From Segatella salivae DSM 15606 (GTDB taxonomy: Bacteria; Bacteroidota; Bacteroidia; Bacteroidales; Bacteroidaceae), in NCBI RefSeq assembly GCF_000185845.1, contig NZ_GL629647.1:580471-611560 (forward strand): a DNA stretch of 31,090 nt, given 5' to 3'. This document shows, in pieces, positions 1-4,863 of this stretch (within the stretch, counting starts at the first letter, position 1; each line of letters begins with the position of its first letter). The notes under the pieces were generated by a model. That model did not search any database. It was not told the DNA's origin and saw only the letters and a program-made list of their open reading frames with translations. The translations under genes and the position numbers were made by a program.

Positions 1-1
1 A

Positions 2-178
2 AGAATTCTAGGTGATTACAATCTCAGCATCAAAGAAGTCATAATAGAAGATGAAATATTAAAATATAGTAGAGAAGAGTATCTTAAGTTATTCAATTAT
101 TCTGAGGAAATAAACACCTTACCACGCGTGTTTTATGAGCCTATTAGAATTCTTTTGGTAATTCATAATAAAGAATAA
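2..178 (+). CDS. 3' fragment (58 codons) of an unknown gene truncated by the window start
   Basis: The frame is open from the window edge to TAA at 176-178 (…GDYNLSIKEVIIEDEILKYSREEYLKLFNYSEEINTLPRVFYEPIRILLVIHNKE*). No recognisable motif. Confidence 0.25.
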   Translation, partial: RILGDYNLSIKEVIIEDEILKYSREEYLKLFNYSEEINTLPRVFYEPIRILLVIHNKE

Positions 179-419
179 CGCGCGAGATCCTAAATTGGCT
201 ATTACAACATTATTTATGATAGTTTAGAACGATTTGATCATTGGATAATCTCAAAAGCAAAGAATTATAAATTGATTGTAATGTAAACTGCTTTGAAGAT
301 ATTTCGTTGCGATGTCAGATTATTTTTACTTACAACATCAAATCAACTTCTGAAGTTCCAGCTTGCCTATTTAATCACGACTTCGGAGTGATTTAATCTC
401 CCCTTTTGGGGCAAGGGTC

Positions 420-452
420 TTTGTGGTACAAATGGCAATTTGTGGTACAAAG
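420..452. repeat. 13-bp direct repeat tttgtggtacaaa x2 (period 20) in a convergent intergenic region
   Basis: Copies at 420-432 and 440-452, each carrying a ggtacc-like core. Two hairpins lie just upstream: 373-393, aatcac…gtgatt with a c(uucg)g tetraloop, and 400-411, cccc tttt gggg. Confidence 0.5.
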
Positions 453-557
453 ACACACCTTGCTGTATCAAGAATGATATGGATAAGCCCTGCTGTGTTA
501 CTGCATTCACTGAATACAGTAACTCGGCGTAGGCTTGCATTCGAGGAATGCAGTACT

Positions 558-1064
558 TCAGAGTTTCCGCCATCTTTCCACATCATCTTTGTATTGGTCG
601 AGATGTTCTCGGAGCACCTGCTCCACATATCCTGAAACGCTTGCTCCCTGCTCACCGATTTTCCTCACCACGAAGTCCAACTTTCGTTGAGTTTCCTCTG
701 ATACATACACGGCTTTGCGGTGGCTGTTGCGAAAGGGCCGTAGATATTTCCCCTGAAACTCGGATAATTGCTTCCTGTCCCTTGTATTTCCCATTCGTTG
801 ATGATTCTCTTCGGTAGAAGTAGCCCTCTCCGTTGGTGACAACTCTGTTTCTTGATAGGACGGTTGAGAATAGTCCTTGTGACTCTCCTCGTCATTTTGT
901 TCCTCAACTTTAACAGGCTCAAATCTTTTCTTCTCCTCTTCATAATCTACGGGCTGGTCAAAATCGGGCAATTCCTCGGGCTTGCGGAGTTTTACGCCAT
1001 AATTTCCCATATCTCTGATGGCTTGCTCTAAAACGGCTTTTCTCTTTTCATCTATGGTCGGCAT
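558..1064 (-). CDS. DUF3408-like conjugative-transposon protein with a C-terminal ribbon-helix-helix-like segment
   Basis: 168-aa ORF. The acidic/Glu-rich middle and the C-terminus (RKAVYVSEETQRKLDFVVRKIGEQGASVSGYVEQVLREHLDQYKDDVERWRKL) match, from memory, the conserved tail of the DUF3408 family found in Bacteroides CTns. Confidence 0.55.
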   Translation of the reverse strand: MPTIDEKRKAVLEQAIRDMGNYGVKLRKPEELPDFDQPVDYEEEKKRFEPVKVEEQNDEESHKDYSQPSYQETELSPTERATSTEENHQRMGNTRDRKQLSEFQGKYLRPFRNSHRKAVYVSEETQRKLDFVVRKIGEQGASVSGYVEQVLREHLDQYKDDVERWRKL

Positions 1065-1366
1065 GGCTTCTTGTGTATTGGGTAATAATGTCTTTCAAGC
1101 ATGGCTTGTATGTCGCTCTGTTTGTAGAGTATCTTGCCACCGATTTTGCAGTAGGCAATCATGCCATTGTCCCGATAGTCCTGAAGCGTGCGGAGACTTA
1201 GCCGTAAAAGTTTGCAGACTTCCTCGCCTGTAAGGTAAACCTCTCCGCCCAACATCGGACGGGCCGTAGCACAATACCGCTCCAATTTCTTTAATATGCC
1301 CTCCATCAGTTGTGCAAACATCTGCATTTGAGGGTCTTGCTGTGTAATGATTTCATTCTCTTCCAT
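1052..1366 (-). CDS. Excisionase-family helix-turn-helix DNA-binding protein (mobile-element associated)
   Basis: 104 aa. The HTH segment LTGEEVCKLLRLSLRTLQDYRDNGMIAYCKIGGKILYKQSDIQAML follows the typical EVC..L.IS.RTLQ..RD.G...Y pattern of Bacteroides CTn HTH_17 proteins. Confidence 0.6.
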   Translation of the reverse strand: MEENEIITQQDPQMQMFAQLMEGILKKLERYCATARPMLGGEVYLTGEEVCKLLRLSLRTLQDYRDNGMIAYCKIGGKILYKQSDIQAMLERHYYPIHKKPCRP

Positions 1367-1369
1367 AGT

Positions 1370-1640
1370 TCATTCATTGTTTGAGTTCAATAACTCCGTG
1401 ACGTCGCTCTCCTTGTAATAGCATTTATGTCCAATCATGGAGAAAGGGATTTTACCCGTGTCGCGATAGGATTGCAGGGTGCGTTTGCTGATGCCCGAGC
1501 CTGCGGCATACGGCTTCATTGTCGAGCCATTCGTCCTTTTCGGGCGGATTGCCGATGAGTTGTTCGATACGATGAATAAAGTCTGCAAAGTCGGAGCTGT
1601 GCCGATCCCATGCCTTGCGGTCGATGATAATGAGTTTCAT
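1370..1640 (-). pseudogene. Frameshifted excisionase-family HTH gene; the intact product would be about 89 aa
   Basis: Two overlapping minus-strand ORFs (1452..1640 and 1370..1588) lie in frames offset by 1. Joining frame B (MKLIIIDRKAWDRHSSDFADFIHRIEQLIGNPPEKDEWLDNEAVCRRLG) to frame A (ISKRTLQSYRDTGKIPFSMIGHKCYYKESDVTELLNSNNE) reconstitutes the canonical family architecture. The shift maps to the short C/G run at plus-strand 1494-1497. Confidence 0.55.
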
Positions 1641-1811
1641 TTCCTTGATTTTGTTTTGATTACTTTATTGTTACTCGGCAAACAAACTCATATACAGTCT
1701 GTTGCCACTATTGTTGTGTGCAAAGGTAAGCGTAGAACTACATTGAACAAAGCAACGCAGAAAAGCAAGGATATAGAAGGAAGAGAAGAGAAGTTAGTCT
1801 GTTAGTCAGAA

Positions 1812-1825
1812 AAGCTTATAAGCTT
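1812..1825. repeat. 14-bp perfect palindrome aagcttataagctt
   Basis: Seen directly. Two overlapping aagctt hexamers make a dyad, placed about 170 bp upstream of the minus-strand HTH operon start at 1640. Confidence 0.6.
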
Positions 1826-1833
1826 TTTGTAAA

Positions 1834-1907
1834 TTGTACGTTGTCAAACAAAAGTGCACAACTGCAAATATTGTACGTTGTCAAACAAAAGTGCACAACT
1901 GCAAATA
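1834..1907. repeat. Perfect 37-bp tandem duplication (ttgtacgttgtcaaacaaaagtgcacaactgcaaata x2)
   Basis: Copy 1 at 1834-1870 and copy 2 at 1871-1907, identical at every base. Each unit contains a gtgcac palindrome. Confidence 0.9.
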
Positions 1908-2053
1908 TAGTTATTTACTCTGATATTTCATTGTTTTATTATCATAAATTCTTTTGTTGATTGTTTTTTGCTTTATAATTTCTCTTATCATTTTAATTTT
2001 CTCCCCTTGTCCTAAATATACGTCTTTGGGTGTGAGATTATCCAACGATTCAT

Positions 2054-2381
2054 GAAATGATTTTCGCCATGCGCGGAAACTCCAAACCTTTCGGGAAATG
2101 ACTTTCGCCGAGCGCGAAAATACCAAACCCTTCGGGAAATGACTTTCGCCATGCGCGGAAACACCAAACCATTTGGGAAATGATTTTCGCCGAGCGCGGA
2201 AATGCCAAACCATTCGGGAAATGACTTTCGCCAAGCGCGGAAATGCCAAACCTTTCGGGAAATGATTTTCGCCGAGCGCGGAAATGCCAAACCATTCGGG
2301 AAACGACTTTCGCCATGCGCGGAAATGCCAAACCATTCGGGAAATAACTTTCGCCAAGCGCGGAAACTCCAAACCTTTTGC
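2054..2381. repeat. Tandem array of eight 41-bp units (consensus gaaatgactttcgccgagcgcggaaatgccaaaccattcgg), with degenerate partial units at both flanks (about 2040-2416)
   Basis: Unit starts counted at 2054, 2095, 2136, 2177, 2218, 2259, 2300 and 2341, an exact 41-bp period. Units 4 and 6 are identical. Variation is confined to a few dinucleotide blocks. The period is not a multiple of 3, and all three minus-strand frames are stop-free across the array. Confidence 0.9.
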
Positions 2382-2593
2382 GGAATGAGTTGCGAGAGGC
2401 CCGCAAGCAATTTCACCAACTTAAAAATAAGCGAAAAGAGGAAAAGGTAAACAACAAAAACCAATGCAGGCAATGCATAAGAAAGAAAGGATGCCAGAAA
2501 CCAAACTACCCTCAAGAAGTAAACGACATCCAACAAAGTTCGTATTTTTTGCTTTTTAACCTTTTTCCATTCCCCACTTTTTCATTTTTTTAC

Positions 2594-2601
2594 TATCTTT
2601 G
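2594..2601 (+). promoter_or_regulatory. Bacteroidetes sigma-A -7 element TAtcTTTG upstream of the mmdA-like operon
   Basis: tatctttg matches the TAnnTTTG consensus, 78 bp upstream of ATG 2680, within an AT-rich tract. Confidence 0.5.
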
Positions 2602-2679
2602 CATCCGAAACTATAGTGTAATCATAAATGGGTTACTAATTGACATTAGGACAACAAAAGATTTAATTGATAAAAACTT

Positions 2680-4245
2680 ATGAGTAAGCAAGTAGAAAAG
2701 ATCAAACAGCTTATTGCAAAACGCGAAGAAGCTCGCCTGGGAGGTGGTCAGAAAGCTATCGACAAGCAGCACGAACGTGGTAAGTACACGGCACGCGAAC
2801 GTATTGAAATGTTAGTGGATGAAGGTAGTTTCGAAGAATATGATATGTTCAAATTGCATCGTTGTCATAACTTCGGCATGGAGAAAAAACAATACTTAGG
2901 TGATGGAGTTGTAGCTGGTTCGGCAACTATCGATGGTCGCTTGGTATACCTTTATGCACAGGATTTCACCGTTAATGGTGGCTCTTTGTCTGAGACTATG
3001 GCACAAAAGATTTGCAAGGTTATGGACATGGCAATGCGTATGGGAGCTCCCGTCATCGGCATGAATGACTCAGGTGGTGCACGTATTCAAGAAGGAATCT
3101 CGGCACTTGCTGGCTTTGGTGAGATTTTCGAACGCAACATTCTTGCCAGTGGAGTCGTTCCACAAATCAGTGCAATCATGGGGCCTTGTGCCGGTGGTGC
3201 AGTCTATTCACCCGCACTAACAGACTTTACCATTATGACCGAAGGCACTTCTTACATGTTCCTTACAGGTCCGAAGGTTGTTAAAACCGTTACAGGTGAA
3301 GAGATTGATGCAGAACATTTAGGTGGTGCAAGCGTACATGCGAGCAAGAGTGGTGTTACTCATTTCACGGCAAAGACCGAAGAGGAGTGCATGGAACTCA
3401 TTAAAACATTACTCTCATATATCCCATCTAATAACACAGAAACAGCTCCCCGTGTAGAATGTACCGACCCGATTGATCGTAAAGAAGACCTTCTCAACGA
3501 GATAATTCCAGAAGATCCTAATCAAGCTTACGACATGTATAAAGTCATCGGTGCAGTCGTTGACAATGGTGAATTCTTTGAAATCCAACCAAAATTTGCA
3601 AAGAACATCATCACAGGCTTTGCTCGTTTCAATGGTCAAAGCGTAGGTATTGTAGCCAACCAACCAGCTGCTTATGCAGGCGTTCTTGATGTAAATGCAA
3701 GTAGAAAGGGTGCACGTTTCGTGCGTTTCTGTGATGCCTTCAATATTCCAATCGTTAGTTTGGTAGATGTACCAGGTTTCTTGCCAGGAACAGGTCAGGA
3801 ATATAATGCTGTCATCCTTCACGGAGCACAACTTCTTTACGCTTATGGTGAGGCAACAGTACCAAAGATTACGATCAACCTTCGTAAGAGTTATGGTGGT
3901 TCTCACATCGTTATGGGTTGTAAACAACTTCGTTCTGACCTCAACTTTGCATGGCCTTCAGCCGAGATTGCAGTAATGGGTGCAAGCGGGGCTGTTGCTA
4001 TTCTTTGTGGCAAAGAAGCTAAAAAGATTAAGGAAGAAGGTGGAGATGTTAGAGCATTCCTTGCAGAAAAAGAAGAGGACTACACTGAAACATTTGCCAA
4101 TCCTTATCAAGCTGCACAATATGGTTACATTGATGATGTTATTGAACCACGCAACACACGTTTCCGTATTTGTCGCGGATTGGCTCAACTTGCAACCAAG
4201 CGCCAGGATATTCCTGCTAAGAAGCATGCCTGCATGCCTATGTAA
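2680..4245 (+). CDS. mmdA: Acyl-CoA carboxyltransferase (methylmalonyl-CoA decarboxylase alpha / propionyl-CoA carboxylase beta family)
   Basis: 521 aa with carboxyltransferase-domain hallmarks, for example the GGARIQEG-type oxyanion region (NDSGGARIQEGISALAGFGEIF) and the conserved C-terminal half. Confidence 0.85.
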   Translation: MSKQVEKIKQLIAKREEARLGGGQKAIDKQHERGKYTARERIEMLVDEGSFEEYDMFKLHRCHNFGMEKKQYLGDGVVAGSATIDGRLVYLYAQDFTVNGGSLSETMAQKICKVMDMAMRMGAPVIGMNDSGGARIQEGISALAGFGEIFERNILASGVVPQISAIMGPCAGGAVYSPALTDFTIMTEGTSYMFLTGPKVVKTVTGEEIDAEHLGGASVHASKSGVTHFTAKTEEECMELIKTLLSYIPSNNTETAPRVECTDPIDRKEDLLNEIIPEDPNQAYDMYKVIGAVVDNGEFFEIQPKFAKNIITGFARFNGQSVGIVANQPAAYAGVLDVNASRKGARFVRFCDAFNIPIVSLVDVPGFLPGTGQEYNAVILHGAQLLYAYGEATVPKITINLRKSYGGSHIVMGCKQLRSDLNFAWPSAEIAVMGASGAVAILCGKEAKKIKEEGGDVRAFLAEKEEDYTETFANPYQAAQYGYIDDVIEPRNTRFRICRGLAQLATKRQDIPAKKHACMPM

Positions 4246-4281
4246 TCCAAGTTGAAAACGAGAAATAATAACGTAAAAACA

Positions 4282-4434
4282 ATGGATAAAAATATATATG
4301 CAGCTATTGCCATGGCACTCTATGAGTTTGAAGGCAATAACGTTCACGACAATGAACCTGGAAAAATCACAATTGCTTTGCGTCCAACGCTATGGAATGC
4401 CAAGTTCTTGTCATTAACAAAGAAACCAAAATAG
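4282..4434 (+). CDS. Small conserved-position ORF between the carboxyltransferase and the biotin carrier; possibly a decarboxylase small subunit
   Basis: MDKNIYAAIAMALYEFEGNNVHDNEPGKITIALRPTLWNAKFLSLTKKPK. Its position mirrors the small MmdE/OadG-type genes in mmd operons. It is in-frame with the downstream BCCP gene, separated by a single TAG. Confidence 0.35.
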   Translation: MDKNIYAAIAMALYEFEGNNVHDNEPGKITIALRPTLWNAKFLSLTKKPK

Positions 4435-4437
4435 AGT

Positions 4438-4863
4438 ATGAAAGAGTTTAAATATACAATTGATGGCAAAGAATATAAGGTTGCTATCGGTGAAATTGAC
4501 GAGAATAACATTGCATCTGTAAATGTAAACGGCGAGGACTTCAAAGTCCAAATGGAAAAAGAAGCAGAACCCGAGAAGAAGAAAGTTGTGCTTGGTAAAC
4601 CTGCACAAACTGAGGAAACAGAAGCTACTCCATCAGCTAATGTCAACACAAACAATGCTGTTAAGGCGCCTCTCCCTGGTACAATCACAGCTATCAACGT
4701 TGAAGTTGGACAAGAGGTTAAGGCTGGAGATGCTGTTGTAGTACTTGAAGCAATGAAAATGGCCAATAATATTGAAGCAGAAAAAGATGGTAAGATTACA
4801 GCTATCTGCGTGAAAGTTGGTCAAACTGTTCTTGAAGAAGACCCACTTGTTGTGATTGAATAA
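4438..4863 (+). CDS. mmdC: Biotin carboxyl carrier protein (biotin/lipoyl attachment domain)
   Basis: 141 aa. Ala/Pro/Glu-rich linker followed by the biotinylation motif EAMKM ([21 protein letters not shown]). Confidence 0.8.

Follow-up and report, generated by a model that had tools for sequence, protein, structure and literature searches.

A 41-bp tandem array upstream of mmdA in Segatella salivae, a probable locus of a dispersed intergenic minisatellite family

The array and its surroundings

In a stretch of 31,090 nucleotides from Segatella salivae DSM 15606 (contig NZ_GL629647.1, positions 580,471 to 611,560; from here on, the window), a tandem array of 41-bp units lies between remnants of mobile DNA and mmdA, the gene for methylmalonyl-CoA decarboxylase alpha. 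A first-pass annotation, made from the sequence alone, considered this array as a possible iteron, partition or binding-site array of a mobile element, as a recombination substrate next to an att site or, as a less likely option, as a gene for a repeat protein. The analysis presented here suggests instead that the array is probably one locus of a dispersed, non-coding and modular minisatellite family of the S. salivae chromosome.

With Tandem Repeats Finder (TRF), positions 2054-2375 were recovered as a single array with a period of 41, 7.9 copies, 87% matches and zero indels. Taking this result together with the unit listing, the entropy profile and the core pattern, eight units of the type named T1, with the consensus GAAATGACTTTCGCCAAGCGCGGAAATGCCAAACCATTCGG, occupy 2054..2381 on the plus strand. 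The unit starts (2054, 2095 and so on to 2341) and the identity of units 4 and 6 at 41/41 positions are as had been annotated, and TRF and the unit listing confirm both them and the period. A 27-nt T1 core has eight matches in the window, versus 0 expected from shuffled sequence, and positions 9-25 of each T1 unit form an imperfect palindromic core, TTTCGC-CNNGC-GCGGAA. The T1 block is followed, with the 41-bp register kept, by a terminal T2-like unit at 2382..2422 (plus strand) that has the hairpin TTGCGAG-AGG-CCCGCAA (TTGCGAGAGGCCCGCAA) at 2390-2406. At many loci this unit type, i.e., TTTTGCGGAATGA(G/T)TTGCGGGAGGCCCGCAAG, closes a run of T1 units or begins a run of T2 units. The array had been described as degenerating at both ends, which does not hold, given that the sequence to the left of 2054 is the tail of an IS3-family element and the sequence to the right of 2381 is a well-defined T2 unit. 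On the other hand, the conclusion that this is not a CRISPR array stands, as the whole 41-bp unit repeats and there is no unique sequence between copies.

The segment that adjoins the array on its left side is a 3' terminal fragment of 182 bp (1872..2053, minus strand) of an IS3-family insertion sequence (IS); it recurs elsewhere, and a longer copy of the element in S. salivae F0493 (L125) scores with the rve/rve_3 domains. Within this fragment, the last 46 codons of the rve transposase (...FHESLDNLTPKDVYLGQGEKI...) are found at 1911-2050 and the right inverted repeat, TGTACGTTGTCAAACAAAAGTGCACAACTGCAAAT, which is the end of the IS tail, at 1872-1906, both on the minus strand. A second tandem copy of the right inverted repeat is present at 1835..1869 (minus strand) as part of a perfect 37-bp x2 repeat at 1833-1906; such a doubled IS end, with two copies of TGTACGTTGTCAAACAAAAGTGCACAACTGCAAAT adjoining the transposon remnant described below, is unusual. 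A minus-strand open reading frame (ORF) at 1911-2372 terminates in the transposase tail. When the window was compared with the longer IS copy in L125, the junction between the IS and the array was placed at 2051..2059 (no strand assigned), where the microhomology CATGAAATG is common to the IS (...TTCATGAAATC...) and to the unit (...TTCGGGAAATGA...). A 33-nt inverted similarity (82%) between 237-269 and 2017-2049 was considered as a second, very degenerate IS tail on the opposite side of the transposon remnant and facing it, and this candidate was dropped as the alignment past the 33 nt was unconvincing.

Further to the left, three genes on the minus strand were assigned with Pfam: a DUF3408 gene (558-1064), an HTH_17 gene (1052-1366) and a second, excisionase-like HTH_17 gene that is split in two overlapping ORFs (1370-1588 and 1452-1640). 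The split gene at 1370-1640 resembles a pseudogene produced by a frameshift, as would suit a mobile module in decay. By its gene content, the region 558-1640 is the remnant of a conjugative or mobilisable transposon (CTn) module of the kind typical of Bacteroidales. No match to window positions 1-1834, which include this remnant, was obtained in any fetched locus; therefore, this part is strain-specific among the loci sampled.

On the right side of the array, the region 2423..2679 (plus strand) comprises a spacer and the putative mmdA promoter, as judged from the sequence and from the comparison of strain haplotypes. A -7 box of the Bacteroidota type, TATCTTTG, is predicted at 2594-2601 from the published TAnnTTTG consensus. 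A scan for sigma-70 promoters and terminators returned no terminators, and its promoter-like matches are not informative for Bacteroidota. The spacer that separates the array from the promoter exists as two alternative haplotypes, of which the window has one (2423-2507); the other one (L123-L129, approx. 3700-3830) contains four copies of a motif of approx. 24 bp, AGGNCCACTTTAAATGA..., which also occurs upstream of the arrays at another locus (flank class N). The gene mmdA itself (methylmalonyl-CoA decarboxylase alpha / acyl-CoA carboxyltransferase) extends over 2680..4245 on the plus strand (Pfam Carboxyl_trans, E=8e-195; exact protein EFV05284.1 of S. salivae, in agreement with the origin of the window), the genes for the small and biotinyl subunits come after it, and it is the core gene that anchors the locus across strains. 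The Pfam results therefore agree with the annotated context, i.e., a CTn-like remnant at 558-1640 and mmdA at 2680-4245, and the array does mark a boundary between mobile DNA on its variable side and core genes on the other.

The mmdA locus across strains and the dispersed family

For comparison, ten contigs were obtained through the exact MmdA protein (L122-L131) and five more came from the metagenome set. In 15/15 of these other S. salivae versions mmdA is preceded by an array that has the orientation seen in the window, and across the 16 strains or contigs that include the window it consists of 2-8 T1 and 0-9 T2 units. This variation in composition occurs although MmdA is 100% identical in L122-L131 and the flanks are 93-97% identical. 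The order of the units is almost unalignable between these arrays except for the terminal units: the last three units of the window are also the last three of L126 and L003, preceded by five units here and by two there. Hence, copy number varies between strains and whole units are gained and lost at a single locus, as had been anticipated for slippage or unequal crossover; unit gain and loss between strains was likewise observed within other flank classes.

The association of the array with CTn ends, on the other hand, was not found. Three versions of the locus (L128, L130 and L111) have neither IS nor CTn, and their layout is a TPR gene, a terminator, approx. 150 bp, a leader with the sequence TTCCATATCTTTGCAACAACTAA, the array and mmdA, an arrangement that is probably ancestral. 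In S. oulorum, P. fusca and S. maculosa no such array was found in the corresponding region at mmdA. From its presence in the strains free of IS and CTn, and its absence from the sister species, it follows that the array upstream of mmdA is a fixed feature of the species, independent of the CTn or IS remnant. Other intergenic arrays are present nearby in the sister species, i.e., 42 bp x5.6 (L136 1025-1257) and 41 bp x6.1 (L137 502-749) in S. oulorum, and in S. maculosa three successive arrays of 22-23 bp with different unit types (L141 1261-1640); periods of approx. 21-23 bp and 41-42 bp recur among the repeats of oral Bacteroidales.

The units are not confined to this locus. Metagenome contigs searched with a slightly looser core pattern yielded at least 120 loci in which the core of the unit is repeated at intervals of exactly 41 bp, 1-15 times per array, and several arrays may share one long contig. 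With the strict T1 core, a single match was found in 185,579 species representatives, a 5.4-copy array in an 'Alloprevotella' contig of a metagenome-assembled genome; the genome of S. salivae itself appears to be absent or masked in that scan. No match to T1 was obtained in a scan of the viral collection, and none to T1 or T2 in a BLAST search of the plasmid collection. Many arrays are located at contig ends, where short-read assemblies break.

Clustering of the flanks of the metagenome loci gave about 25 upstream and 28 downstream classes, and the upstream and downstream classes are paired differently in different contigs. Every array inspected is intergenic. The neighbours, identified by reading ORF translations and not by a family scan, are ordinary chromosomal genes, among them ABC-F ATPases, a penicillin-binding protein, FBPase, FtsY and TonB-dependent receptors. 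At least seven arrays are located approx. 200 bp past a 5S rRNA gene, behind the terminator of the rRNA operon (rrn). At three loci (L067 1-8180, L026 and L007) the order is 5S rRNA gene, 41-bp array and type I-B cas operon; in this operon cas6, cas7 and cas3 have Pfam hits and two other ORFs do not. A link of the arrays with Cas6 was considered from these loci and rejected, as cas6 merely opens an ordinary type I-B operon whose position behind the rRNA operon is fortuitous.

The arrays are composite, with blocks of T1, T2 (AAAAAGTGATTTGCGGGAGGCCCGCAAGCGTCAAAACCTTT) and T3 (CTTCTTTTTGGCCTTTCTGCAGTGTGCAGAAGCATGAAAAA) units, each of 41 bp, in register and on one strand. All unit types have in common a palindromic core of the form TT-N5-N3-N5'-AA. 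Arrays open with the leader TTCCATATCTTTGCAACAACTAA in three flank classes and with a start module, AATAAACGATTCGC, in two, and the transition unit from T1 to T2 recurs; yet most flank classes begin with unique degenerate units. Edge units are the most diverged, with 4.4 and 5.7 differences from the T1 consensus versus 3.4 for interior units. No terminal inverted repeats (TIRs) bounding the T1/T2 arrays were found. A comparable organization was observed in Tannerella serpentiformis (L132 10800-11205), in which a two-block 41-bp array, with four units of the TTTGCGGGAGTCCCGCAA type followed by six of the TTGCGCGNNNTGCGCAA type, lies approx. 150 bp upstream of htpG. Its core is nearly identical to that of T2, although this species belongs to a different family (Tannerellaceae versus Prevotellaceae).

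Insertion sequences are frequently joined to the arrays. The 182-bp IS segment of the window (1872-2053) recurs in 20 of the first 121 loci with 82-98% identity (BLAST), and L124 and L127 hold both ends of the element, in the order left inverted repeat (IRL), orfA (HTH_Tnp_1), AAAAAAG, orfB (rve) and right inverted repeat; by this organization, the element is an IS3-family insertion sequence with the ends TGTACGTTGTCAAACAAAAGTGCACAACTG. Four types of junction between IS and array were distinguished. In the first, window position 2053 meets T1 position 1; in the second, the equivalent of window position 1977 meets a T2 unit; in the third, the interior of rve meets T1 position 23 (L125, L073); and in the fourth, the orfA/orfB frameshift site meets the 3' end of a T1 array (L001, L014, L041). 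Three of the four types lie on GAAAT or GGAAAA microhomology. The truncation of the IS at several points, together with the reshuffled pairing of flank classes, suggests that the arrays are hot spots of illegitimate and ectopic recombination. In this sense the proposal that the array is a recombination substrate is supported by the truncation junctions and by the reshuffling of flanks, and nothing supports that it is an att site.

Some other arrangements were found at these loci. From L001 and L014 it seemed that an array could reside inside the IS, between IRL and orfA; this was rejected when the true IRL and orfA were found in L124 and L127, and the L001-type layout is instead another junction between an array and the IS interior, at the AAAAAAG frameshift site. 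In L001 there are also two adjacent tyrosine integrase genes (223-2638; 393 and 409 aa), approx. 475 bp upstream of a T1-type array fused to orfB of the IS; the 409-aa integrase is common to several Prevotella species. Finally, an element that resembles miniature inverted-repeat transposable elements (MITEs), with the inverted repeats TATTGCTGTCCGGTAAA, was detected in L029 (1175-1729) and also in L014, L063, L068 and L074. In L029 these repeats enclose approx. 10 copies of another 41-bp unit (GAAAAAGAGATTTTTAGCCCTAAAGCGTCGCGCGGAAGCAT), an architecture like that of the BrickBuilt elements discussed below. The TIR TATTGCTGTCCGGTAAA is present in 16 loci, where it encloses other unit types or adjoins class E arrays only.

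Coding potential and RNA structure

On the minus strand, three ORFs that overlap one another (153, 174 and 118 aa) run through the array. The first-pass annotation was right in that the three minus-strand frames are free of stops; it had also considered this very unlikely by chance, which it is not, as 14% of random 41-mers of this composition, when tandemly repeated, have no stop in any of the three frames of a given strand, and for 24% this is true of either strand. The open frames are unremarkable because the array has only 41 independent trinucleotide positions. When the three ORFs were compared with Pfam no significant match was obtained, only sub-threshold noise. The period is not a multiple of three, the unit counts of different strains are separated by numbers not divisible by three, so that the reading frame is shifted, T2 blocks within arrays carry stop codons, and the 153-aa ORF runs into the IS transposase tail and is thus chimeric. 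These results all but dispose of the repeat-protein gene. At least 956 'proteins' have been predicted by gene callers over such arrays in public data; among the 120 matches listed, the only one with a named source is from S. salivae.

At the RNA level, only tRNAs reach the Rfam gathering scores in the window and there is no CRISPR-DR hit on the array; permissive Rfam scans of the T1, T2 and Tannerella arrays returned sub-threshold chance hits only. The RNA of the window array folds no better than shuffled sequences (z = +1.1 for the plus strand and +1.7 for the minus strand). A single T1 unit forms the TTTCGC/GCGGAA hairpin with -5.4 kcal/mol and z = +0.3, and a T2 unit folds to -12.4 kcal/mol with z = -1.8. 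The leader, with its TATCTTTG motif, was also considered as a universal promoter of the arrays; this was rejected, given that it is found in only three of about 25 flank classes.

Interpretation of the family

Taken together, these results are best accounted for if the array upstream of mmdA belongs, as one locus, to a minisatellite family that is dispersed, non-coding and modular, an interpretation that we consider probable. By analogy, the family appears comparable to BOX, to BrickBuilt or to tandem clusters of repetitive extragenic palindromes (REPs), with arrays that would change by slippage and recombination. It is apparently undescribed, although it belongs to a known kind of bacterial repeat; a search of the literature on the unit sequences, on 41-bp repeats in Prevotella and on repeats of S. 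salivae yielded no report of it.

Among described systems, the nearest in kind is BrickBuilt of P. gingivalis, a strictly intergenic element with about 19 or 20 copies per genome that consists of a leader, direct repeats of 22-23 nt and a tail; its units are gained or lost between strains, it has transposase-like flanks, and promoter-like elements are present in the leader and the tail (Klein et al. 2015, PMC4596501). The likeness lies in the order Bacteroidales, the oral habitat, the intergenic location and the gain and loss of whole units at conserved loci. In contrast, the units of BrickBuilt have 22-23 nt versus 41 bp in S. salivae, the sequences are not similar, MITE TIRs enclose BrickBuilt and none were detected around the T1/T2 arrays, and the S. 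salivae arrays are composites of several unit types with a palindromic core, in which BrickBuilt differs.

A similar organization exists in the Firmicutes. The BOX elements of Streptococcus pneumoniae, with the structure boxA-(boxB)n-boxC, are intergenic, occupy many dispersed sites, vary between strains and contain a hairpin-capable internal module of approx. 45 bp in variable tandem number. The boxA and boxC ends of these elements pair, whereas the ends of the S. salivae arrays are heterogeneous, with several leader types and successive blocks of different units; there is no sequence relationship.

Some IS elements are known to target REPs, and the units described here resemble these sequences and the mosaic elements that they form (BIMEs) in being extragenic and palindromic, in their many copies, often in tandem, and in their usual proximity to the 3' ends of genes. 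However, REPs have a GTAG or CGTC tag and are associated with RAYT, while the S. salivae units have no GTAG and the CGTC-like position 3' of the T2 hairpin is hypervariable. In addition, REP clusters usually alternate in orientation, and the S. salivae arrays have a single orientation and a fixed 41-bp period. Head-to-tail tandem reiteration of short extragenic palindromes has been reported for REP clusters of Proteobacteria (PMC3733652).

With iterons and CRISPR the array has in common direct repeats of similar length and regular spacing, and neither description fits. Iterons have 17-22 bp, are restricted to one origin, with a rep gene beside them, and show no dispersal. As for CRISPR, the type I-B repeat found near some arrays (GTTATAATTGAACCTTAGTGGAATTGAAAT, 30 nt, L026 9073-9872; also L067) is unrelated to T1, T2 and T3, and this candidate was rejected. 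The defining features of CRISPR, of iterons, of REP/RAYT systems (no tag, no RAYT seen among the neighbouring ORFs inspected) and of TIR-bounded MITEs are absent from the family; those that describe a dispersed intergenic minisatellite are present.

If this interpretation is correct, the arrays would grow, shrink and be reordered through replication slippage and through homologous recombination between units, either unequal or ectopic. In the strain of the window, an IS3-family element would have landed at the 5' edge of the array, it would then have been truncated by a deletion mediated by the GAAAT microhomology, and further mobile DNA, i.e., the CTn remnant, could have accumulated on the unstable 5' side. 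The main biological effect of the array would be that of a hot spot of length variation, deletion and rearrangement, and most likely it has no dedicated function for a mobile element or for mmdA.

Several observations weigh against a family of repeats shaped by slippage and drift. Both the 41-bp period and the palindromic core are retained in the different unit types and also in T. serpentiformis. When 25 cores of the types T1, T2 and T3 and of two types from Tannerella were aligned, 93% of the cells were paired (at most 65% in slid controls) and four of the seven core pairs were altered on both sides, i.e., by compensatory change, although these cores represent only about five independent lineages and fewer events have occurred than such counts suggest; a covariation score of 0.436 was obtained, versus 0.150 in shuffles (0/500 shuffles reach it). 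Conservation departs strongly from neutrality: among 401 distinct T1 units, variants occur in approx. 50% at some positions and in 1-3% at others. The entropy profile concentrates this variability at positions 5-6, 16-18, 27-29, 36-37 and 39-41, where few alternatives are used (e.g., AT/AA/GA at 16-17 and TG/CT/CA at 27-28) and are freely recombined between units. These variable positions recur every 10.25 bp, which is the dominant Fourier term, with a power of 61.9 versus at most 29 for the others; the P value under a block-preserving null is about 0.0014, uncorrected for the post hoc choice of the harmonic. Within an array, units differ at 5.0/41 positions versus 5.75/41 between loci, a result not predicted by local slippage alone. 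The gene on the 3' side converges on the array in 22 of 28 flank classes, according to a rough ORF-based count, a feature beyond what drift would give. Lastly, the seeding of the family at about 25 sites is not explained by this account.

For these reasons a functional interpretation deserves mention, even if it seems doubtful to us: that the 41-bp arrays are a conserved functional chromosomal element of oral Bacteroidales, acting either as a protein-binding or structural platform, which may be a boundary or insulator, a nucleoid anchor or a buffer between replication and transcription, or as a leader-driven repetitive RNA. It is kept alive by the 41-bp period (four helical turns) with a palindromic core across unit types and two families, by the placement at rRNA operon ends and beside highly expressed genes, and by the 10.25-bp phase of conservation.

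The more specific version of the platform, which we regard as unlikely, is a phased binding site on double-stranded DNA, where a DNA-binding or nucleoid-associated protein touches the helix on one side once in each turn, a 41-bp unit being equal to four turns; in that case the arrays would be architectural or boundary elements, for instance at the ends of rRNA operons or upstream of the highly expressed mmdA operon. This would account for the 10.25-bp term in the 401 T1 units, for the maintenance of the period in all unit types and in Tannerella, for the arrays at the ends of several rRNA operons, and for the two GGAAAYR half-sites, approx. 20.5 bp apart, that each T1 unit contains. Nevertheless, the periodicity is not significant in T2 units (P about 0.15), and the core alters its sequence and stays symmetric, which fits a structural constraint better than a single sequence-specific protein. 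Copy number and unit order are also extremely variable between near-identical strains, and no candidate binding protein was identified.

An action at the level of RNA is quite unlikely in our view. It would take the form of a repetitive non-coding RNA promoted from the leader (e.g., a protein sponge), or of a stabiliser or terminator in 3' untranslated regions, like REP and BOX. The leader TTCCATATCTTTGCAACAACTAA, present in three flank classes that include the IS-free mmdA haplotype, contains a perfect -7 box (TAnnTTTG), the wobble pairs of the core alignment are 16 G.U cells and no A.C cells, which favours the hairpin on the plus strand, the 3'-side gene is usually convergent, and the folding of T2 (z = -1.8) points in the same direction. 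However, the strand favoured by the wobble pairs is the opposite of the one transcribed by convergent read-through, and canonical terminators separate the arrays from the convergent genes. Most flank classes lack the leader, and so does the window, where the IS tail replaced it; moreover, the T1 array and the single T1 unit fold no better than shuffles, and no terminator-like site or Rfam match was found.

Improbable too is that the units are actively spread by a hairpin-recognising enzyme, in a REP/RAYT-like or MITE-like manner, with the arrays as by-products. A core conserved through compensatory changes, the scattering of the family over many intergenic sites, the MITE-like element of L029 whose TATTGCTGTCCGGTAAA ends enclose 41-bp units, the IS fragments repeatedly joined to arrays and the existence of head-to-tail REP clusters (PMC3733652) would all be expected in that case. 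On the contrary, T1 and T2 lack a conserved GTAG or CGTC tag, no TIRs bound their arrays, all hairpins point one way, unlike REPIN pairs, and reading of the translations of 51 neighbouring ORFs revealed no Y1 transposase.

It is very improbable that the array serves the adjacent CTn-like element or IS as an iteron, a partition site or an att site. Its position next to the CTn remnant and the IS tail, and the pair of tyrosine integrase genes near the related array of L001, are what this proposal has in its favour, and they are outweighed by the array at the identical place in strains without CTn and IS, by about 25 or more loci with unrelated housekeeping flanks, by the absence of rep or par domains in window 1-4863 (Pfam), by the lack of T1 matches in the plasmid and viral collections, and by the contrast between a CTn remnant unique to this strain and an array that is species-wide. 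Finally, a minus-strand repeat-protein gene, to which the three open frames of 118-174 aa and the numerous gene-caller predictions could be attributed, has a negligible probability in view of the coding evidence given above.

Returning to the minisatellite family as the probable explanation, its first consequence is for annotation: for the window, the labels of iteron or att site and of a repeat protein rich in W, F and R are removed, and the at least 956 spurious 'hypothetical proteins' predicted over such arrays in public data are explained. The family marks rearrangement and IS-truncation junctions in a common oral commensal, and its variation between strains with identical housekeeping proteins is enough for a strain-typing marker based on variable numbers of tandem repeats (VNTR). 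The mmdA locus itself is ordinary, and what stands out are the regularities of the family, i.e., the 41-bp period across unit types and two families, the phased conservation and the location at rrn ends. If the phased conservation and the period common to two families were functional, which is the minority possibility, these arrays would offer a tractable entry to the chromosome architecture or the RNA biology of the Bacteroidales.

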